Assembly: GCA_964229335.1 (NCBI GenBank)
Contig: CAXRCZ010000012.1
Coordinates: 1-33,522 of the forward strand
Direction: 5' to 3'
Length of the DNA stretch: 33,522 nucleotides
Origin: Minisyncoccia bacterium
Lineage (GTDB): Bacteria > Patescibacteriota > Minisyncoccia > Phycocordibacterales > UBA918
Positions 471-17,978 of this stretch are shown in pieces. The notes under the pieces are model-generated. The model worked only from the letters and a program-made list of their open reading frames with translations, had not been told where the DNA came from and made no database searches. The position numbers and the translations under genes are program-made. The first letter of the stretch is position 1. Every line of letters starts with the position of its first letter.

Positions 471-2063
471 ATGGAGAAACCTACCTTCTTTTTATATGCC
501 CGCAAGTCGACCGATGTCGAGGATAAGCAGGTACTAAGTATCGAAGCGCAGCTGGCGGAGTTGCGTTCGTTTGCCAAGCTGGAGGGGTTAGAGATAGCAG
601 AGGAGTTTGTGGAGAAAAAGAGTGCCAAGATGCCCGGCCGTCCAATTTTTAATGACATGATGAACCGTCTCGAGCGAAAAGAGGCAGTGGGCATTATCGC
701 TTGGCACCCAGACCGCCTCGCACGCAACTCAGTCGATGGGGGACGAGTTGTGTATCTGCTCGACTGCGAACATATTTCGATGCTGAAATTTCCAACTTTT
801 TGGTTTGAAAACACATCACAAGGAAAATTTATGCTTAGCATCGCCTTTGGGCAGAGTAAATACTACGTGGATTCACTTTCAGAAAACACCAAGCGCGGGC
901 TACGCCAAAAAGTTCGTCGCGGAGAATATCCAGGGCTGGCACCAATGGGATATATCAACGACTCGAGGACAAAGACGGTAGTCATTGATAAAAATAAAGC
1001 GCCAGCCATTACCGCGGCATTTGAATACTACGCTGAGGGTGAACATCGACTGGAAGACGTTGCGAACTTTTTGGCGAAACGAGGGATCAAAGCGCGTGGC
1101 GGAAAACCACTCCACCGAACGAGAATTACTTGTATCCTTTCCAATCCGTTCTACACGGGATTGTTTCAGTACGCAGGTGAGGTACACGAAGGTACTCACC
1201 AACCAATTGTGGCAAAGAAACTGTTTGATGAAGTGCAGGAAGTCATGCAAGAGCGCGGGCGACCGCATAAAAATTTTAAAAATGAGCCACAGGCATTTTG
1301 TGGACTGATGCGGTGTGGAGGTTGCGGCATGATGATTACTGCTGAACATAGGGTTAAAAAACAGAAGAACGGAAACGTGCATGAGTATGTGTATTATCGC
1401 TGTACCAAGAAATCAAAATTAAAATGTGATGAACCCTATGTTCGAGAAGAGGAGATAGATAGACAAGTCACAGCGTTACTAGAAACAGTTTCTTTGCCCG
1501 CGTCGTGGGCGAGGCAGTTGGAGATTATGCTGGCGCAAGAGGAAACTGCCTCAACCTACGACGCAACGGAACATCTCAAGGCAAGCAAGGAGCGTGAGCG
1601 GAGGATAGAACAAAAGCTTGAGCGTCTTCTCGATTCATACCTAGAGCAGGATATTGATCGGGAAGTATATCTCGAGAAGAAAGCAGCTTTGCTCAGTGAA
1701 AAGAAGTCACTGCAGGAGAAAAACGCTGCCTTGGAGACGTCCCGAATTGGCTGGCTCGAACCCATGCGAGAGTGGATACAAGTGGCAGAAAACCTGCCTG
1801 AAATTGTCCGCGATGGCACCCTTTTAAAGAAAAAGGTTGCAGCCAAAGAAATCTTTGGCTCGAACCTCCGCCTGCGCGCTCGCGAGCTGTTGCATTCCCC
1901 ACCGGAAAACGGCTCCGCAGAGCCACTTTCACCGTACTTTGTTTTGTCCTCGTTGCGCGCGAAGCGCGGTTCTATGACTGAAAGTCACATTCTGGGGCGG
2001 CTACCGGGAATCGAACCCGAACTTTCGGTACCACAAACCGATGCACTAACCGTTATACTATAG
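471..2063 (+). CDS. Large serine recombinase (resolvase + recombinase + zinc ribbon + coiled coil)
   Basis: YARKS catalytic Ser motif, DRLARN, LSNPFYTG, CGGCG...YYRC...C zinc ribbon, coiled coil; last 21 aa are encoded by the antisense strand of tRNA-His. Confidence 0.95.
   Translation: MEKPTFFLYARKSTDVEDKQVLSIEAQLAELRSFAKLEGLEIAEEFVEKKSAKMPGRPIFNDMMNRLERKEAVGIIAWHPDRLARNSVDGGRVVYLLDCEHISMLKFPTFWFENTSQGKFMLSIAFGQSKYYVDSLSENTKRGLRQKVRRGEYPGLAPMGYINDSRTKTVVIDKNKAPAITAAFEYYAEGEHRLEDVANFLAKRGIKARGGKPLHRTRITCILSNPFYTGLFQYAGEVHEGTHQPIVAKKLFDEVQEVMQERGRPHKNFKNEPQAFCGLMRCGGCGMMITAEHRVKKQKNGNVHEYVYYRCTKKSKLKCDEPYVREEEIDRQVTALLETVSLPASWARQLEIMLAQEETASTYDATEHLKASKERERRIEQKLERLLDSYLEQDIDREVYLEKKAALLSEKKSLQEKNAALETSRIGWLEPMREWIQVAENLPEIVRDGTLLKKKVAAKEIFGSNLRLRARELLHSPPENGSAEPLSPYFVLSSLRAKRGSMTESHILGRLPGIEPELSVPQTDALTVIL
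1861..1998. repeat. Right arm of 138-bp inverted repeat, inside recombinase 3' end, overlapping the tRNA 3' end by 6 bp (TGGGGC)
   Basis: Exact reverse complement of 138-275. Confidence 0.95.
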
Positions 2064-2068
2064 CCGCC
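1993..2068 (-). tRNA. tRNA-His (GTG) with G-1 and encoded CCA
   Basis: Minus strand GGCGGCTATAGTATAACGGTTAGTGCATCGGTTTGTGGTACCGAAAGTTCGGGTTCGATTCCCGGTAGCCGCCCCA: GCGGCTA/TAGCCGC acceptor stem, GTG anticodon, GGTTCGATTCC T-arm, G-1:C73. Confidence 0.96.
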
Positions 2069-4725: not shown

Positions 4726-6039
4726 ATGAATATAGAAATGATTCGCAAACGTGACGGTTCAACTCAATCGTTTAATATTGAGAAGATCGTCAGCGCTATT
4801 GCTAAAGCGTTTGCTGAAACAGGAGAGGGTAATCGAGAGACGGCACAAGAAGTAGCCGAAGTAGCCCACCAAAAGATAGTAGCTATGTGTGTCCAGGCTG
4901 GCACCGCAGCGGCTGATAGTCCGCTGGCTCAAAAATGTATCGACGGAGCACCAGCTGTGGAGGAGATTCAAGACTTGGTAGAGCAGGCCTTGATGGAAAA
5001 GGACTTTTTCACCACCGCCAAAAAATACATCATCTATCGCAACGAGCGCAAAAAGCTCCGCGAGCGCGACATCTTTGCTCGTCGCGTTAATTTGAAACCA
5101 TACGAATACCCAAACCTCTATGAGTACACCAACGCTGTCCGACACTCGTATTGGGTACATACTGAATTCAACTACACCTCTGACGTGCAGGATTTTCACG
5201 TCAATGTTAATGAGGTGGAACGTAGCGCTATCAAAAACTCAATGCTCGCCATTGCGCAAATCGAAGTCGCGGTAAAGACATTCTGGGGTGATATTTACAA
5301 AAAGATGCCCAAGCCAGAAATCGGTGCGGTAGGAGCCACTTTTGCGGAGTCAGAAGTGCGACACGCTGATGCGTATGCCCACCTTTTAGAAATCCTCGGT
5401 CTTAATGATGAGTTCAAGCGAGTCAAAAATATCCCAGTTATCCAAAAACGTATCGCCTACCTCGAAAAGACCATCGAACTATCTCGCACACAAGATAATA
5501 AAGACTACTTCAAATCAGTCCTTTTGTTCTCATTGTTTGTTGAGCATGTGTCACTCTTTTCACAATTCCTGGTGATGATGTCGTTCAATAAGTACAAGAA
5601 TCTATTCAAAGGCATGAGCAACGCTGTAGAAGCAACCTCTAAGGAAGAGCAAATTCACGGCATGTTCGGAATTGATGTCATAAACATCATCAAAGAAGAA
5701 CATCCAGAATGGTTTGATGAGGAATGTAACCAAATGATTATTGAATCGTGTCGCGAAGCCTATGAAGCCGAAGAGGGAATCGTTGACTGGATATTTGAAG
5801 CAGGTGAACTTGATTTCATGCCAGCAGCGAACGTAAAGGAATTCATTAAGCACCGCTTCAATAGCTCGCTGTCTGCTATCGGTCTGCCGCGCATCTTTGA
5901 CATCAACGAAGCGTTGCTTGAAGAAACTGACTGGTTTGACGCTGAGGTTATCGCTACCAAGCACGTCGACTTCTTTAACAAGCGATCAATCAACTACAAC
6001 AAGCGGTCAGCCAGTGTCACGAGTGACGACCTGTTCTAA
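4726..6039 (+). CDS. nrdB: Class I ribonucleotide reductase beta subunit with N-terminal ATP-cone
   Basis: IRKRDG...VEEIQDLVE...AKKYIIYR ATP-cone; metal ligands AQIE, ESEVRHADAY, FVE, KEEQIH; C-terminal DFF...Y. Confidence 0.93.
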   Translation: MNIEMIRKRDGSTQSFNIEKIVSAIAKAFAETGEGNRETAQEVAEVAHQKIVAMCVQAGTAAADSPLAQKCIDGAPAVEEIQDLVEQALMEKDFFTTAKKYIIYRNERKKLRERDIFARRVNLKPYEYPNLYEYTNAVRHSYWVHTEFNYTSDVQDFHVNVNEVERSAIKNSMLAIAQIEVAVKTFWGDIYKKMPKPEIGAVGATFAESEVRHADAYAHLLEILGLNDEFKRVKNIPVIQKRIAYLEKTIELSRTQDNKDYFKSVLLFSLFVEHVSLFSQFLVMMSFNKYKNLFKGMSNAVEATSKEEQIHGMFGIDVINIIKEEHPEWFDEECNQMIIESCREAYEAEEGIVDWIFEAGELDFMPAANVKEFIKHRFNSSLSAIGLPRIFDINEALLEETDWFDAEVIATKHVDFFNKRSINYNKRSASVTSDDLF

Positions 6040-6079
6040 AAGTGAGAACGGAGAGAAATTTCTCCCCGTTCTCACTTTT
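6038..6079. terminator. 20-bp near-perfect palindrome between nrdB and nrdA
   Basis: AAAAGTGAGAACGGAGAGAA-AT-TTCTCCCCGTTCTCACTTTT, followed by TATAAT at 6083-6088. Confidence 0.6.
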
Positions 6080-6125
6080 CGTTATAATGAATTTAAATTA
6101 CAAAATTAATTAACTTCCACTGTTT

Positions 6126-7808
6126 ATGAACCCATGGTACTGGTTGAACGAAAATAGCCGCGCTTTCCTAGCTAGAGGATATCTGGCTGAAGGTCAGACG
6201 GCCGAAGAACGAATAGATGTAATCGCGAAAGCGGCTGAAGAATACTTACAGGAAGATGGGTTCGCTGAAAAATTTACCGAGTACATGTCGAAGGGGTGGA
6301 TTTCACTAGCTTCACCGGTCTGGTCTAACTTCGGTATCGATAAAGGGCTACCAATTAGTTGTTTTGGTTCATATGTCGATGATGACATGGGAAATATTCT
6401 CTATACCAACGCAGAAGTTGGTATGCAGAGCAAGCATGGTGGAGGTTGTTCTGGTTTCTTTGGCGCCCTTCGCCCGCGTGGTGCTGCTATTGGTAATGGT
6501 AACGGGTATTCTTCAGGTGCTGTGCACTTCATGCAGTTGTTTGAGACACTCATAAACGTAGTGAGCCAAGGATCGGTTCGCCGAGGACACTTCTCTCCCT
6601 ATCTGCCAGCGGAGCACGATGACATCATGGAATTCCTAGATATCGGGACCGAAGGAAATCCAATTCAAAAACTCACTCACGGTGTCACTGTGGGGGACGA
6701 ATGGATGCAATCAATGGTTGATGGTGACGAAGCCAAGCGTAAGGTATGGGCACGCATCATTCAGCGTAGGGGAGAAATGGGGTATCCGTACATCATGTTT
6801 AGCGATACCGCCAACAACAACACAGTAGACGTCTACAAAGACAAAGGACTGCGCATCCACGCCAGCAATATGTGTAGCGAGATTATGTTACCAAGCAAGA
6901 CTGACTGGTCATTTGTATGTTGTCTCTCTTCACTCAACTTGCGTCACTACGATGAGTGGAAAGACACCGACCTGGTAGAAACCATGATTAGTTTCCTCGA
7001 TGCGGTAATGGAAGACTTTATCGTCAAGCTAGAACGCATGCGTGATCACGAAGATGTACAAAAACAACAATCCTTTCACTTTATGGAACGGGCGTACAAC
7101 TTTGCTAAAGAAAACCGTGCTCTTGGTCTTGGAGTGCTGGGATACCACTCACTTTTGCAGGACAAGCGAATTGCGTTTGCTAGTGGCGAGGCCGCTACTT
7201 TAAACGAAGAAGTGTTCTCACTCATCAAGACCAAGGCCGATAGTGCAACCAAAGCATTGGCAGAGAAATTAGGTGAACCAGCAGTGCTTGAAGGGTACGG
7301 ACGACGCAATACAACTCTACTCGCCATTGCGCCAACCACTTCTTCTGCCTTTATTCTCGGTCAGGTATCGCAGGGAATCGAACCAATTTGGTCAAACTGT
7401 TATGTCAAAGACGTGGCCAAAATGAAGGTCACTATCAAGAACCCTACCCTCAAAGCATTACTAGCTGAAAAAGATAAGGATGACAAAGCTACCTGGGATA
7501 GCATTCGAGACAATGACGGCTCGGTACAACACCTCGACTGTCTATCTGATGAAGAAAAAGAAGTCTTCCGGACCTTTGCCGAAATCGATCAACTAGCTAT
7601 TATCGAACAAGCAGCCACCCGACAGAAACATATCGATCAAGCGCAATCACTCAATATTATGGTGGCACCAGATACGCCAGTAAAAGACATCAACAACCTG
7701 TACCTCGAAGCTTGGAAACAGGGAGTCAAGACACTTTACTACCAACACTCGATGAATGCTGCCCAGCAGATGGTGCGTCGCAAGCTAGCCGAACAAGAAA
7801 AGAAGTAA
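6126..7808 (+). CDS. nrdA: Class I ribonucleotide reductase alpha subunit (no ATP-cone)
   Basis: PISCF, SNMCSE, FVCCLSS, IAPTTSS and TLYY catalytic motifs. Confidence 0.95.
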   Translation: MNPWYWLNENSRAFLARGYLAEGQTAEERIDVIAKAAEEYLQEDGFAEKFTEYMSKGWISLASPVWSNFGIDKGLPISCFGSYVDDDMGNILYTNAEVGMQSKHGGGCSGFFGALRPRGAAIGNGNGYSSGAVHFMQLFETLINVVSQGSVRRGHFSPYLPAEHDDIMEFLDIGTEGNPIQKLTHGVTVGDEWMQSMVDGDEAKRKVWARIIQRRGEMGYPYIMFSDTANNNTVDVYKDKGLRIHASNMCSEIMLPSKTDWSFVCCLSSLNLRHYDEWKDTDLVETMISFLDAVMEDFIVKLERMRDHEDVQKQQSFHFMERAYNFAKENRALGLGVLGYHSLLQDKRIAFASGEAATLNEEVFSLIKTKADSATKALAEKLGEPAVLEGYGRRNTTLLAIAPTTSSAFILGQVSQGIEPIWSNCYVKDVAKMKVTIKNPTLKALLAEKDKDDKATWDSIRDNDGSVQHLDCLSDEEKEVFRTFAEIDQLAIIEQAATRQKHIDQAQSLNIMVAPDTPVKDINNLYLEAWKQGVKTLYYQHSMNAAQQMVRRKLAEQEKK

Positions 7809-13076: not shown

Positions 13077-13787
13077 ATGCAATATATTCCCATCAAAACT
13101 GACCGCTTACAGCCACCGCAAGATGACCTATTTTCAGCCTTAAACAAAGCACTTACTTCTCTAGAAGAAGGAGACATTGTGGTCATATCTTCCAAAGTGG
13201 TCGCGATTCATGAAGGAAACTGCTTGCCTATTACTGATGAGCCAAAAAGTGAATTGGTGGAGAGAGAGGCTGAGTTAGTCATTCCACGCACCTATAAACG
13301 GCTACCTCTAACCATTCGGCACGGAGCATTTATAGGCAATGCGGGTATTGATGTGAGTAATGCCAATGGCCATTACATTTTGCTGCCGAAAGATCCGTTT
13401 GCGAGCGCCAAGAATATTTATGTGCACCTAAAGGAACAGTTCAATTTAGAAAAACTAGGAGTGATTATTACTGACAGTCATTCTTCGCCACTCCGTCGAG
13501 GGGCGACGGGAATATCGATTGGGTTCTGGGGGTTTGAACCGATTCGTAATTATGTTGGCAAGCCAGATTTATTTGGTCGACCACTCAAGGTAGAGGTGGC
13601 AAACTTGGTAGACGGAATTGCTGCTGGGGCAGTGGTAGTGACCGGTGAAGCTGATGAAGGTACGCCAGTAGTAATCGTACGTGGCGTACCAGCTATTGAA
13701 TACACTGAAGAGAATCGTAAAGGCACGGTCATCATGCCCTTTTCTGTCGACTACTTCCGCGTGCTTTACGAACGCTTCCTCTCGTAG
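13077..13787 (+). CDS. CofE-like gamma-glutamyl ligase (F420-0 ligase family; putative alternative folylpolyglutamate synthase)
   Basis: GDIVVISSKVV, NAGIDVSN, GVIITDS, DLFGRPL, GEADEGTPVV. Confidence 0.85.
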   Translation: MQYIPIKTDRLQPPQDDLFSALNKALTSLEEGDIVVISSKVVAIHEGNCLPITDEPKSELVEREAELVIPRTYKRLPLTIRHGAFIGNAGIDVSNANGHYILLPKDPFASAKNIYVHLKEQFNLEKLGVIITDSHSSPLRRGATGISIGFWGFEPIRNYVGKPDLFGRPLKVEVANLVDGIAAGAVVVTGEADEGTPVVIVRGVPAIEYTEENRKGTVIMPFSVDYFRVLYERFLS

Positions 13788-14296
13788 TCAATCCATTGAT
13801 AGGAAATATCCTTGTGCTCACGAGGTGGATGTCTTTCAATAATCTCAAAATCATCTTCAAACTCTGGAAAAAAAGTATCAGCCTCTGGTGCATCATCAAT
13901 CCAGGTGACATAGAGTTTTTGTACCCGCGGCAGCATCAGTTGATACAACTGTGCACCGCCTCCAATATGAATTTCTACCGGTTTTTCATTCTGTGCGAGC
14001 GACACCGCTTCTTCTACCGAGTGAGCCACTAACACGCCATCGTGATTGTACGAAGTATCTCTCGTTACTACGATGTTGGTGCGGTTGGGTAGTGGTTTAC
14101 CCAGAATATCGAGTATCGACTCAAAGGTCTTGCGCCCCATAATAATTGGATGGCCTGAAGTAAGTGCTTTGAATCGCTTCAAATCATCAGGAATGTGCCA
14201 CAAGAGACTATTGTCTCTGCCCAAAGCCCTGTCTTGCTTTGACATGGCTACGACGATGGTGAGGGGTGGGTTTTTCTGAAAGAGTTTTTTGAGCAT
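13766..14296 (-). CDS. folA: Dihydrofolate reductase
   Basis: LLWHIPDDLKRFK, IMGRKTFESI, LPNRTNIVVT, IGGGAQLY, DTFFP; ATG 14296 preferred. Confidence 0.95.
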   Translation of the reverse strand: MLKKLFQKNPPLTIVVAMSKQDRALGRDNSLLWHIPDDLKRFKALTSGHPIIMGRKTFESILDILGKPLPNRTNIVVTRDTSYNHDGVLVAHSVEEAVSLAQNEKPVEIHIGGGAQLYQLMLPRVQKLYVTWIDDAPEADTFFPEFEDDFEIIERHPPREHKDISYQWIDYERKRS

Positions 14297-14499
14297 ACTG
14301 AAGTTACTTTGCAGCTCGCTGCAGCCAAAATCTTCCATGGTAGGTCGATTTTGGCTAAGCGCCTGCATACTTTCGCAATAATCGAGCTACGCTCTCTTTT
14401 GCTCAAGCATTATGCCATAGGGTGTCTTGGTTGTCGTTTTGTGACCGCTAGCATAGTCGGTATAATGCATATATTACTTAGCTTCACTACTATTTTCCT

Positions 14500-15174
14500 A
14501 TGTCACACTTTGAGATTGAAATAAAAAGCTTGCTCGGGGACGAGTCCAATGCAGTACGACTCAAGGAGAAAATGTGCGAGCTTGACCCCAACTGCCAAGT
14601 TGTGGCTAGTAACAAACAGCTCAACCACTACTTTGAAGGGGGAGATATAGAAGATTTGTATACACAAGTCAAACACTTATTTGACGATGCACAACAAACA
14701 AAACTACGAACTGTAATTGAGCGAGGCAGTGAATTTTCTATCCGGTCGCGGCAGAAAAATGACGAAGTGTTTTTGGTTGTAAAAGCATCGGTAGATGAAG
14801 GCACTAGTGCCAACACAGTAAAACGGATGGAGTTTGAAGAATTAGTCAATGTGTCACTAGATGAGCTTGACGAACTCCTCCTGGCGGCTGGTTTTGAGTA
14901 CCAAGCCAAGTGGTCTCGCGAACGCGAAGAGTACGCGTACAAAGGAGCGAGCGTATGTTTGGATAAAAATGCTGGCTACGGCTATCTCGCTGAGTTTGAA
15001 AAACTAGTTCACGACGAAGCCGAGGTAGATAAAGTGCGAGAAGAAATAGACGAGCTCATGAATGAGCTCGAAGTCGTCGAACTTGGTCAAGATCGTCTGG
15101 CTCGTATGTTTGATCACTACAACCAAAACTGGCCCCAGTATTACGGCACCAATAAAGTATTTGTAATTGAGTAA
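14500..15174 (+). CDS. CYTH / triphosphate tunnel metalloenzyme domain protein
   Basis: N-terminal EIEIK (ExExK), NHYF, IRSR, REREEY, LD...G.LAEFE. Confidence 0.85.
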   Translation: MSHFEIEIKSLLGDESNAVRLKEKMCELDPNCQVVASNKQLNHYFEGGDIEDLYTQVKHLFDDAQQTKLRTVIERGSEFSIRSRQKNDEVFLVVKASVDEGTSANTVKRMEFEELVNVSLDELDELLLAAGFEYQAKWSREREEYAYKGASVCLDKNAGYGYLAEFEKLVHDEAEVDKVREEIDELMNELEVVELGQDRLARMFDHYNQNWPQYYGTNKVFVIE

Positions 15175-15175
15175 T

Positions 15176-15721
15176 ATGTTTTTATCTGACGTTGATATCA
15201 AGGCAGGAGTAGAAAGCGGAGCAATCACTATCGAGCCCTTTAATGAAGATAATTTAAGCGTCGCCAGCTACGATGTGACACTTGGCAACGAGTTCGAAAT
15301 AGTCGACCGCCACCAAATTGAAGCCTCAGATCCAGCGCGCAAAATTTATCCTGCAACTCGCAAGATTGAGATACCTGATGGAGGAGAGTTCGTGCTGCAC
15401 CCTGGAGAGAATGTGCTCGGTAAGCAAAAGGAATTTATTGGCGTTGACCTTGAGCACTTGATACTACTCTCTGGCAAAAGTAGCTTGGCACGAATCGGTC
15501 TGGTAGTTCACAACACCGCCATGCTCTTTAACCCAGGACACAAGTTCTATCCCACTTTTGAGTTAGTTAATAGCAGCAACATCCCGATTATTCTCCGGCC
15601 GGGTATGGAGATAGCCCAACTCATTTTTGCCAAGTTACAAACGCCTGCCGGCAAAAGTTATGAGGACGCTGGTCGCTATGACAGTACCAACTCAGATCAT
15701 TTTAAGGAACGTAAACAATAA
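15176..15721 (+). CDS. dcd: dCTP deaminase (atypical motif 3)
   Basis: ASYDVTLG, GKSSLARIGLVVH, NPGH..PTFEL, GMEIAQLIF; ATG 1 nt after the CYTH stop. Confidence 0.88.
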   Translation: MFLSDVDIKAGVESGAITIEPFNEDNLSVASYDVTLGNEFEIVDRHQIEASDPARKIYPATRKIEIPDGGEFVLHPGENVLGKQKEFIGVDLEHLILLSGKSSLARIGLVVHNTAMLFNPGHKFYPTFELVNSSNIPIILRPGMEIAQLIFAKLQTPAGKSYEDAGRYDSTNSDHFKERKQ

Positions 15722-15724
15722 ACT

Positions 15725-16705
15725 ATGCAAAACAAACATCCAGAATATCAATATCTTGATTTAGTCCAAGAGATTTTAGAAAAGGGCAGCAAGCAGGTTG
15801 ATGCTCAGTCAAAAGACGTGACCTATAGTTTGTTTGGTAAACAGATGCGCTTTGATTTGAGTGAAGGTCTACCGCTTCTGACTACTAAAAAAGTGTATTG
15901 GAAAGGAGTCTTGCATGAGCTGTACTGGTTTTTATCCGGACAAACTAATATCAAATATCTAGTCGATAACAACATTCATATTTGGGACGACTATCCACTT
16001 CGTATTTACAATGACAAGCGTGAATCAGAAGGGTGGCCAGAGCTAAGCAAGGAAGAGTTTATCGCTAAGATAGAAAGTGATTCAGAGTTTGCTAAACAGC
16101 ATGGAGAACTACCGAGGATTTATGGTGAGATGTGGCGCAATTGGCCACGCAGAGATGGGGGGGGTATTGATCAACTACAGTGGGTGGTCGACGAGATAAA
16201 AGCTGATCCAGGATGTCACAATGCTATCGTAACCAGCTGGAATCCAGAATATCTATACGCTATGGCCAAACCAGGAGAAGCTTGCCGATTCCCAATTTGC
16301 CACAATATGTTTCAGGTCAATATAAACCAAGGAAAGTTGTGCTTGCAGCTATACCAACGATCAGCCGACATTTTCTTAGGAGTACCATTCAATATCGCCA
16401 GCTACGCTCTGCTTACTATAATTTTGGCAAAAATTACTGGTTATGAGCCAGGCGAATTTGTTCACACTTTTGGCGATGTTCACATCTATGAAAACCATAT
16501 CGAACAAGCTAAAGAGCAAATAAGTCGCACTCCTTACGCGTTTCCAAAAGTTACTCTTAGCGACGAGGTAACTTCACTAGAATCATTCCGTCCTGAGCAT
16601 GTCACGTTAGAAAAGTATGAGTCACACCCACCAATAAAGGCCAAAATGGCAGTGGTAGGTGGATTTCACGCCGACCTTCACGCCGACCGAGACACTAATT
16701 CATAA
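15725..16705 (+). CDS. thyA: Thymidylate synthase family protein (atypical phosphate site)
   Basis: RFDLSEGLPLLTTKK, ELYWFL, PICH (catalytic Cys), YQRSADIFLGVPFNIASY, GDVHIY. Confidence 0.9.
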   Translation: MQNKHPEYQYLDLVQEILEKGSKQVDAQSKDVTYSLFGKQMRFDLSEGLPLLTTKKVYWKGVLHELYWFLSGQTNIKYLVDNNIHIWDDYPLRIYNDKRESEGWPELSKEEFIAKIESDSEFAKQHGELPRIYGEMWRNWPRRDGGGIDQLQWVVDEIKADPGCHNAIVTSWNPEYLYAMAKPGEACRFPICHNMFQVNINQGKLCLQLYQRSADIFLGVPFNIASYALLTIILAKITGYEPGEFVHTFGDVHIYENHIEQAKEQISRTPYAFPKVTLSDEVTSLESFRPEHVTLEKYESHPPIKAKMAVVGGFHADLHADRDTNS

Positions 16706-16709
16706 CTCT

Positions 16710-17978
16710 ATGGATAGATACAACCACATCAAACAGCAAGACGAAGAGGTGTATAAAGCCCTGATGGGTGAGGAGAAGCGGGAACGAGTCGGCATAGAGC
16801 TGATTCCTAGTGAGAACTACGTCTCACAAGCCGTGCTCGAAGCCAACGGTAGCATCTTCACCAACAAATATTCTGAAGGATATCCAGGAAAGCGCTACTA
16901 TGGGGGACAAGAATTTACCGACCAAGTAGAACGACTAGCGATTGAGCGAGCGTGCCAGTTATTTAATTGTAAATACGCCAATGTTCAGCCACTAGGCGGA
17001 GCCGCTGCTAATGTCGCAATGTATTTTGCACTTATGAAGCCTGGCGATACAGTCCTTGGTATGGATCTCTCACACGGCGGGCATCTGACCCACGGCCATC
17101 CTACTACCGCCATTAATCAAGTATTCAATTTTGTGCGGTACAAAATGAAAGACGTGGATACGGGAGAGATAGATTATGATCATCTACGCGAAATGGCTTT
17201 AGAGCATAAGCCAAAAATTATTTTGGCGGGCTACTCAGCCTACACACGTGAACTCGACTACGCCAAATTCAAAGCCATTGCTGATGAGGTCGGAGCATAC
17301 ACAGTAGCTGACATAGCGCACATCACGGGGTTGATTGCTGGGGGAGTACACAAAAATCCGTTTGATTACGGATTTGATGTCATGACGATGACAACTCATA
17401 AATCACTACGTGGTCCACGCGGCGGCATGATTTTGGTTCGGGAAGATAAAGAGCTTGCTAAGAAGATAGATAAAGCGGTATTCCCAGGTATGCAGGGTGG
17501 TCCGCATATGCATATAGTGGCCGCCAAGGCAGTAGCATTTAAAGAAGCGCTTGCCCCAAGCTTCAAAGATTACACCGCGCAAATCCTCAAGAATGCCAAA
17601 GCTATGGAAGCAGTATTTTTACGCGAAGGGGTGCGCTTGCTTGGCGGGGGAACCTCAAATCACATGTTGCTAGCTGATGTCTACGGCTCGCTCGGTATTA
17701 GCGGACAAGAAGCCGAAACTGTTCTCGATAGTGTTGGTATTACTCTGAATAAGAATATGATTGCTGACGAACCACGAACCGCTCTAGACCCATCAGGCAT
17801 ACGGTTTGGCACACCAGCTATGACCACTAGGGGTATGAAAGAAGCAGAAGCGACAGAGCTGGCAGAAATCATGATTGACGTGCTGCGCCAACCTAATGAT
17901 TCAGCTGTGCTAGAAGTAGCGAAAGAAAAGGTAACGACACTCGCCAACAATTTCCCAGTCCCCGTCACATTCGTCTAG
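16710..17978 (+). CDS. glyA: Serine hydroxymethyltransferase
   Basis: LIPSEN, NKYSEGYPGKRYYGG, HGGHLTHG, TTHKSLRGPRGG; ATG 16710. Confidence 0.97.
   Translation: MDRYNHIKQQDEEVYKALMGEEKRERVGIELIPSENYVSQAVLEANGSIFTNKYSEGYPGKRYYGGQEFTDQVERLAIERACQLFNCKYANVQPLGGAAANVAMYFALMKPGDTVLGMDLSHGGHLTHGHPTTAINQVFNFVRYKMKDVDTGEIDYDHLREMALEHKPKIILAGYSAYTRELDYAKFKAIADEVGAYTVADIAHITGLIAGGVHKNPFDYGFDVMTMTTHKSLRGPRGGMILVREDKELAKKIDKAVFPGMQGGPHMHIVAAKAVAFKEALAPSFKDYTAQILKNAKAMEAVFLREGVRLLGGGTSNHMLLADVYGSLGISGQEAETVLDSVGITLNKNMIADEPRTALDPSGIRFGTPAMTTRGMKEAEATELAEIMIDVLRQPNDSAVLEVAKEKVTTLANNFPVPVTFV

Follow-up and report, generated by a model that had tools for sequence, protein, structure and literature searches.

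The phosphate-binding site of thymidylate synthase (TS) has been rebuilt in a widespread clade of Patescibacteria; this remodelling is real and conserved. The usual dUTPase is missing from genomes of the clade, and thymidylate kinase (Tmk) is often missing too. Taken together with the rebuilt site, these losses suggest that the variant TS uses dUDP and not dUMP. We infer that it methylates dUDP to dTDP, bypassing dUMP and Tmk. This is the single most economical account, to which we give a probability of about 0.4. A wider statement, which includes dUTP as a substrate, has slightly better than an even chance: a large group of Patescibacteria would make thymine nucleotides without dUMP or dTMP, its TS being fed by two unrelated dUTP gamma-phosphatases which can stand in for each other; one of these would be a dUTPase fold whose chemistry has changed.

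The operon and its genome

The gene lies in contig CAXRCZ010000012.1 of a Minisyncoccia bacterium (assembly GCA_964229335.1). The whole stretch analysed, 33,522 nt, will be called the window; its features are given in Table 1. The operon has the order CYTH-dcd-TS-glyA with gaps of 1, 3 and 4 bases, and folA is divergent. Promoter and terminator scans gave results near chance level.

Table 1. Features of the window related to the variant TS
Feature	Position	Strand	Basis or comment
Class I ribonucleotide reductase, small and large chains	4726..7808 (4726-6039, 6126-7808)	+	
Dihydrofolate reductase folA, divergent from the operon	13766..14368	-	Longest ORF probably begins upstream of the true start
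CYTH triphosphate-tunnel enzyme, TS-linked family	14500..15174	+	Predicted to convert dUTP to dUDP + Pi
dCTP deaminase	15176..15721	+	Deaminase Ser/Arg/Glu intact; dUTPase-type motif-3 Asp changed to Asn
Variant folate-dependent thymidylate synthase, 326 aa	15725..16705	+	Sole TS found in the genome
Arg21-equivalent loop, one residue longer, with Ala27 in place of the Arg	15800..15823	+	Alignment
His165-Asn166 replacing Arg126/Arg127	16217..16222	+	Alignment
7-residue insertion upstream of the catalytic Cys, last residue the conserved Arg188	16268..16288	+	Alignment
Catalytic Cys192 (E. coli Cys146)	16298..16300	+	Cys in 102/102 clade sequences
Arg212-Ser213, retained phosphate contacts (E. 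coli Arg166, Ser167)	16358..16363	+	Alignment
C-terminal extension of 16 aa with clade-wide Gly312-Gly313	16655..16702	+	
Exact 12-bp tandem duplication	16665..16688	+	Incidental
Serine hydroxymethyltransferase glyA	16710..17978	+	Supplies methylene-THF

The genome has 741 kb and is estimated to be 97.95% complete, with a contamination figure of 7.5%. One of its contigs (C7, 1-126716) is a perfect palindrome over its whole length, so the unique part of the genome is below 741 kb; the palindrome is an assembly artefact, which probably inflates both genome size and contamination figure. Profile searches of this genome found no ThyX, Tmk, thymidine kinase, deoxynucleoside kinase, classic or dimeric dUTPase, nor a second gene of the ThyA family. 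It does have nucleoside diphosphate kinase (NDK), genes like Adk, Cmk and UMP kinase, and an orphan kinase (contig C3, 11040-11678) distantly like the dNMP kinases, which could replace Tmk here. Such a replacement is found in P. putida, where a T4-like kinase takes the place of Tmk (PMC10653934). Motif matches indicate a uracil-DNA glycosylase and several Nudix proteins; the latter could make dUMP.

Class I ribonucleotide reductase acts at the level of NDP, so it would supply dUDP and dCDP directly, a supporting context for dUDP as substrate. An ATP-cone was detected at the N-terminus of its small chain but not on its large chain; this arrangement has been described.

Residues of the variant TS

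Residues were numbered by alignment to the ThyA of L. casei and E. faecalis. Four arginines of ThyA bind the phosphate: 21, 126', 127' and 166 (PMC6005164, Table 2). Only one of the four is left in this protein. An earlier note, made from the DNA letters alone, had seen that canonical DRTGTGT is DAQSKDVT here and that PxSRR is PGCHN; it concluded that the equivalents of Arg21, Arg126 and Arg127 are lost and that the arginine of YQRS is the sole survivor. The alignment agrees in every point: Ala27 occupies the Arg site in the loop D-A-Q-S-K-D-V-T, with one residue extra, the pair is His165-Asn166, and Arg212 corresponds to Arg166. The note was equally right that the catalytic Cys, Glu, Tyr, Asp/Asn and the His/Tyr which bind the 3'-OH are intact: we find Glu65, Trp87, Tyr133, Cys192, His193, Ser213, Asp215, Asn223, His253 and Tyr255, together with Tyr where the canonical enzyme has Trp83. 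It missed the 7-residue insertion before Cys192. From the Trp to the Cys there are 21 residues vs 14 in the canonical enzyme, and the insertion brings in Arg188.

The canonical end of ThyA aligns to residue 310. The protein thus continues for 16 aa beyond the usual end, as had been noticed, and its terminus is not the canonical one. The tandem repeat of 12 bp in this tail is also exact, and it arises in 0/200 codon shuffles. However, six close relatives have a tail of the same length and a similar peptide with no exact DNA repeat: the duplication did not create the tail, and we reject it as its source.

All three profile cut-offs for TS are exceeded, with scores of 358 vs 108 (TIGR03284), 360 vs 325 (NF002496) and 326 vs 24 (PF00303). 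The alignment-based AF2 model (pLDDT 94.2) has the TS fold; it was used instead of the single-sequence fold, which has pLDDT 35. Foldseek with this model gave only TS structures among the 50 matches listed. The tail is predicted to be partly ordered, with a helix at 316-319 and pLDDT about 72 for residues 311-320. The enzyme is ThyA-like in fold and chemistry, yet two features which define canonical ThyA, the full set of phosphate arginines and the conserved chain end, are missing from it. We therefore file it as a variant of the ThyA superfamily with a putative substrate.

A clade in Patescibacteria

The best 120 database homologues, with 68-88% identity, share the changes just described. Of 387 genome loci, the best 80 carry for the most part the names of Patescibacteria groups in their titles, and one that of Pacearchaeota; the other titles, as labelled, are 'bacterium', Gammaproteobacteria, Bdellovibrionales and Pseudomonadales. 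For the phylum we sampled 200 genomes which are at least 90% complete. There is a ThyA-like gene in 82 of them, and 80 were analysed, G024 and G080 being left out. Typing by motifs gave 22 variant, 47 canonical-like and 11 otherwise divergent genes, so that the variant is present in 22 of the 200 genomes, about one in nine. The 22 variants and the TS of the window form a single branch (SH-aLRT 97, in a quick tree with the trait columns included). The question raised by the note, whether the substitutions define a clade, is thus answered by alignment and tree: there is one branch and the changes are common to the relatives.

The clade alignment has 102 variant sequences, with one duplicate among them (L057 = G099). 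Arg127 is lost in all 102, where Asn (82), Ser (11) or His (9) is found; position 126 has His (63), Lys (31) or Arg (8). Arg21 is present in about 30 of the 102 vs 44/47 canonical sequences. No clade sequence has all four phosphate arginines, vs 40/47 of the canonical ones. The claim that three of the four are lost holds for the enzyme studied here and for 69 of the 102; it does not hold for 26 sequences which keep two and 7 which keep three. The catalytic Cys, Glu58, Tyr94, Arg166, Asp169, Asn177, His207 and Tyr209 are kept throughout (102/102). Gly-Gly follows the canonical end in 101/102, and many tails are Lys-rich; the extension is 0 in 47/47 canonical sequences. From its residues, the rebuilt site appears to remain polar or basic. 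The note had named other basic residues filling the pocket as an argument against its own reading. At the level of sequence this is partly the case: Arg188 is found in 73/102 and there is an Arg at position 125 in 16. These new basic residues make the use of dUMP a serious rival.

Other TS proteins with related changes were observed. L138 (in G104) is sister to the branch: it lacks Arg126/127 and the Gly-Gly tail, its genome has no Tmk, and neither of the partners described below was found. In a separate TS group from six genomes of Patescibacteria (L151, L152, L153, L156, L159, L161) Arg21 and the Arg-Arg pair are also gone, but by other changes, and there is no Gly-Gly tail; this is possibly an independent remodelling. 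L160, L162, L163 and L164 are TS-like proteins which diverge strongly and whose catalytic segment is altered; they possibly act on another substrate, and three of them adjoin a Dcd-like gene without the deaminase Glu. Within the clade, L102, L104, L107 and L315 form a subtype with a 13-residue insertion in the Arg21 loop. They have the same CYTH-dcd operon, with CYTH genes up to 77% identical to the one in the window, so the subtypes seem to be interchangeable.

Phage origin of the variant is not supported: viral matches, which were counted without motif typing, reach only 45% over full length.

The partner slot: CYTH or PRxT

The variant TS is coupled to one of two families. Among its 102 loci a linked CYTH gene is found in 47, and in 43 a gene which we call PRxT, a label for the dUTPase-fold family adjoining this TS. 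No locus has both, and 12 have neither, several loci being incomplete. The other TS loci have a CYTH or PRxT partner in 0/58 cases; the partner profiles used for these counts were built from these same loci. Three of the genomes with neither have a partner elsewhere (G095, G217, G252), while none was found anywhere searched in G004 or G213. The presence of any CYTH protein does not discriminate (35/69 genomes): only the linked family does. CYTH matches in canonical genomes (25 of 26 scored) have at most 25 bits vs at least 284 for members of the linked family, in a search which missed one known member and is not exhaustive. The reverse test started from the partner: 80 metagenome loci were found via CYTH and 60 of them have a TS, of which the 56 readable ones are all variant and 4 are N-terminal fragments.

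The CYTH motifs are ExExK (E5/E7/K9), RxR (R82/R84) and ExE (E165/E167), in 48/48 proteins. There is an HF at the N-terminus, but not at cyclase spacing (no HFxxxxExExK). RxR and ExE mark gamma-phosphate hydrolases which yield NDP and Pi (PMC8233210). From these motifs the partner is predicted to turn dUTP into dUDP and Pi, and by analogy it would belong to a diphosphate-yielding family. Its best solved match is PH1819 (PDB 2EEN, E 1.3e-7), which shares the three motifs, as does SaTTM (PMC8233210); the partner family differs from both by its greater length and by its tie to the variant TS. SaTTM converts ATP to ADP and Pi, but its preferred substrate is inorganic triphosphate and it does not distinguish between bases; the main text of that paper does not mention dUTP (PMC8233210).

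PRxT shares the trimeric dUTPase fold and a Ser/Thr-Arg motif with the archaeal-type dUTPase PRK02253 and with Dcd:dut. It differs by its scores, 64-85 bits where PRK02253 has a cut-off of 130, and in its residues: the deaminase Glu is absent in 45/45 and the motif-3 Asp in 39/45 (present in 6/45), although many positions are invariant. The motif-3 Asp is affected in the dCTP deaminases as well. It is Asn in 41/76 from variant genomes, including one here, vs 0/16 from canonical ones, and is kept in 32/76. The same change lowers the efficiency of M. tuberculosis Dut to 0.0002 (PMC5519681). Short degenerate dUTPase-fold proteins without the C-terminal motif were also seen near the variant TS, at L057:4236-4598, L106:1884-2261 and L088:4993-5424.

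Nucleotide enzymes in the same genomes

Co-occurrence was compared in the 22 variant and 47 canonical genomes. A full-length classic dUTPase is present in 1/22 vs 34/47, and the lone one of the variant set lacks the C-terminal motif. Any match to Tmk (E 0.001 or better) is found in 11/22 vs 46/47. The Fisher p values are 4e-6 for Tmk and 6e-8 for dUTPase; they exaggerate the significance, since the variant is one clade and its correlations with gene losses are not independent among kin. The second set consists of 50 out of 80 genomes of close relatives, whose completeness was not given: classic dUTPase occurs in 2 of the 50 and Tmk in 25 (strong match) or 36 (any match). Full-length thymidine kinase is found in 0/22 vs 9/47, weak matches on ORFs of roughly 357 aa being excluded from the counts. 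ThyX is absent from all 69 genomes (0/22 and 0/47), and five further genomes have one ThyA each. NDK is nearly universal (21/22 vs 47/47). No dimeric dUTPase appeared in 5/5 genomes searched, where the control is weak (1/14).

The chemistry which makes dUMP from dUTP has thus been lost repeatedly in genomes with the variant TS, and the kinase which uses dTMP has often been lost. The loss of Tmk is not a rule: many variant loci carry it, and we reject the idea that it is always absent. The 11 variant genomes without Tmk belong to four families, five of them to one genus; as a background, 27/118 genomes without ThyA also lack Tmk (a derived count). Nor is the orphan kinase a general reason for the loss, since it is found in 7/22 variant vs 22/47 canonical genomes and is missing from 10 of the 11 without Tmk. 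One of the genomes lacking both is a single contig (G037), with short kinase matches only of the Adk-like and Cmk-like types.

Some genomes look more ordinary. G213, from Pacearchaeota, has the variant as its only TS, adjoining an intact dUTPase and a DHFR-Tmk fusion; neither CYTH nor PRxT was found. It is the only one of 121 genomes searched in its order with this TS. L063 has an intact dUTPase. A dCMP-deaminase-like gene is present at 6/22 variant loci, and a tree of these deaminases does not separate clade from canonical loci.

The substrate of the variant TS

The earlier note had proposed a catalytically competent enzyme whose substrate differs at the 5' position, as deoxyuridine, dUDP, dUTP or a modified nucleotide. 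The genome context (loss of dUTPase, frequent loss of Tmk, a coupled partner) gives this partial support. Among the candidates dUDP fits best and dUTP comes second. According to our proposal dUDP would have two sources: it would come directly from ribonucleotide reductase, and also from dCTP, which the deaminase would convert to dUTP, from which CYTH would remove the gamma phosphate only. In other lineages the dUTPase-fold protein without Asp would take the role of CYTH. The TS would methylate dUDP with methylene-THF by the usual Cys mechanism, DHFR and SHMT would recycle the folate, and NDK would convert dTDP to dTTP. In the pocket, Arg166 and Ser167 would keep the alpha phosphate, the shorter side chains of His and Asn would make room, and Arg188 with the Gly-Gly tail would hold the beta phosphate.

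Several facts argue against dUDP. In half of the clade genomes Tmk is still present, frequently at the TS locus itself; the dCMP-deaminase-like genes at six loci would yield dUMP; NDK would re-phosphorylate dUDP in a partly futile cycle. To these are added the dUTPase of L063, the 32/76 deaminases with Asp and the 27/118 ThyA-less genomes without Tmk. G213 shows an ordinary layout for dUMP; Tmk also acts on dUMP, so that even there it could still supply dUDP. The corresponding rival is an ordinary synthase from dUMP to dTMP with a compensated pocket, in which CYTH and PRxT are new enzymes from dUTP to dUMP and another kinase replaces Tmk. We consider it a serious possibility, only a little less probable than dUDP. 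The terminal carboxylate of ThyA contacts Arg21: the tail removes this carboxylate, so the loss of Arg21 may just offset it, and His/Lys126 and Arg188 would restore charge. The variant passes the ThyA equivalog cut-offs, and a natural loss of Arg127 is compatible with dUMP activity in the VAAP enzyme (PMC6005164). G213 looks like a replacement in place, in a locus with dUTPase and Tmk. This layout, the dUTPase of L063, the dCMP-deaminase-like genes, the orphan kinase of the present genome and the possible compensation of charge let this rival keep its weight. It requires, however, three separate ad hoc changes which co-occur only with the variant TS. It also leaves three things unaccounted for: the absence of a CYTH/PRxT slot beside any canonical TS, the loss of the Asp which forms dUMP, and the phosphorylation of dTMP in the 10 genomes without Tmk and orphan kinase.

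Methylation of dUTP, the product of the adjacent deaminase, directly to dTTP would explain the losses of dUTPase, deaminase Asp and Tmk equally well. The position of dcd directly upstream and the Lys-rich tails are in its favour, and the partner would only trim surplus dUTP. We find it unlikely: a near-obligate hydrolase would compete for the substrate, a standing pool of dUTP is hazardous beside the uracil-DNA glycosylase indicated by a motif match, and the site loses arginines rather than gaining them. Quite improbable is a uracil nucleotide modified in some way, for instance as the 3',5'-cyclic form, or a role in DNA modification. Some CYTH enzymes are cyclases and the one here has the N-terminal HF, but its spacing is not that of cyclases and the RxR and ExE motifs are those of phosphatases; His253 and Tyr255 imply a free 3'-OH, Asn177 is kept, and the enzyme is the only TS of its genome, in a housekeeping operon and with no close viral relative found. 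Least probable of all is free deoxyuridine, methylated to thymidine, with the partner possibly moving the whole triphosphate between dUTP and thymidine. It is the simplest reading of three lost arginines and the 3'-OH binders are intact; against it, the clade genomes have no thymidine kinase, neither this enzyme nor a deoxynucleoside kinase was found here, Ser167 is retained, and nothing but His, Lys or Arg occurs at position 126. We know of no precedent for triphosphate transfer in the CYTH or dUTPase fold.

Comparison with known enzymes

The closest known enzymes are the long ThyA of E. faecalis and L. casei (EC 2.1.1.45; PDB 3UWL, 1LCA). The variant is 42-49% identical to them and has the same fold (TM 0.81-0.87 by query) and the same linkage to folA and glyA; it retains every catalytic residue as well as those for uracil and the 3'-OH. 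Unlike them, the variant has one of the four phosphate arginines, the 7-residue insertion, a Gly-Gly tail past the terminus and Tyr at the Trp83 position, and its genomes differ from those of canonical ThyA hosts by lacking dUTPase and often Tmk. Mutants of L. casei ThyA are changed at the same positions (PDB 1BP0 R23I, 1BO8 R178T, 1TSV R179A and the doubles 1BPJ and 1BP6), but these losses were engineered, and the mutants have neither the compensating insertion nor the tail. TS-fold (hydroxy)methylases of cytosine nucleotides have Asp in place of Asn177, whereas the clade has Asn there (Asn223) in 102/102.

The VAAP-clade ThyA of Vibrio parahaemolyticus shares the natural loss of Arg127 and was called the first natural substitution of a single arginine (PMC6005164). 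It keeps Arg21, Arg126 and Arg166 and uses dUMP with a higher Km (PMC6005164). The variant is not of the VAAP type: it has Asn where VAAP has Gly, and it also lacks Arg21 and Arg126.

According to a published description, de novo synthesis of dTTP must pass through dUMP (PMC5519681). The odds that the variant TS reveals a route to dTTP independent of dUMP are about even. If true, a TS acting on dUDP or dUTP would depart from a route to DNA precursors which is regarded as universal; it would explain how dUTPase and thymidylate kinase can be dropped from streamlined genomes, and two enzyme families so far uncharacterised would gain a function. Even if dUMP is used, the clade is a natural test of phosphate binding by TS with one arginine. 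In the literature searched, which covers few subscription journals and no supplements, we found no description of the clade or of dUDP or dUTP methylation by a TS; a term search in the accessible text of PMC9931769 gave no mention of CPR or of the arginines.

Other features of the window

A CofE-family glutamate ligase is found beside folA at 13077-13787; its best match is TIGR04132, below the cut-off of that profile. At the end of the contig there is a large serine recombinase ORF (471-2063), which overlaps a tRNA-His (1993-2067, minus strand). A perfect inverted repeat of 138 nt has one arm upstream of the recombinase (138-275) and the other in its 3' end (1861-1998). Recombinase and repeat are either the edge of an integrated element or an assembly artefact.
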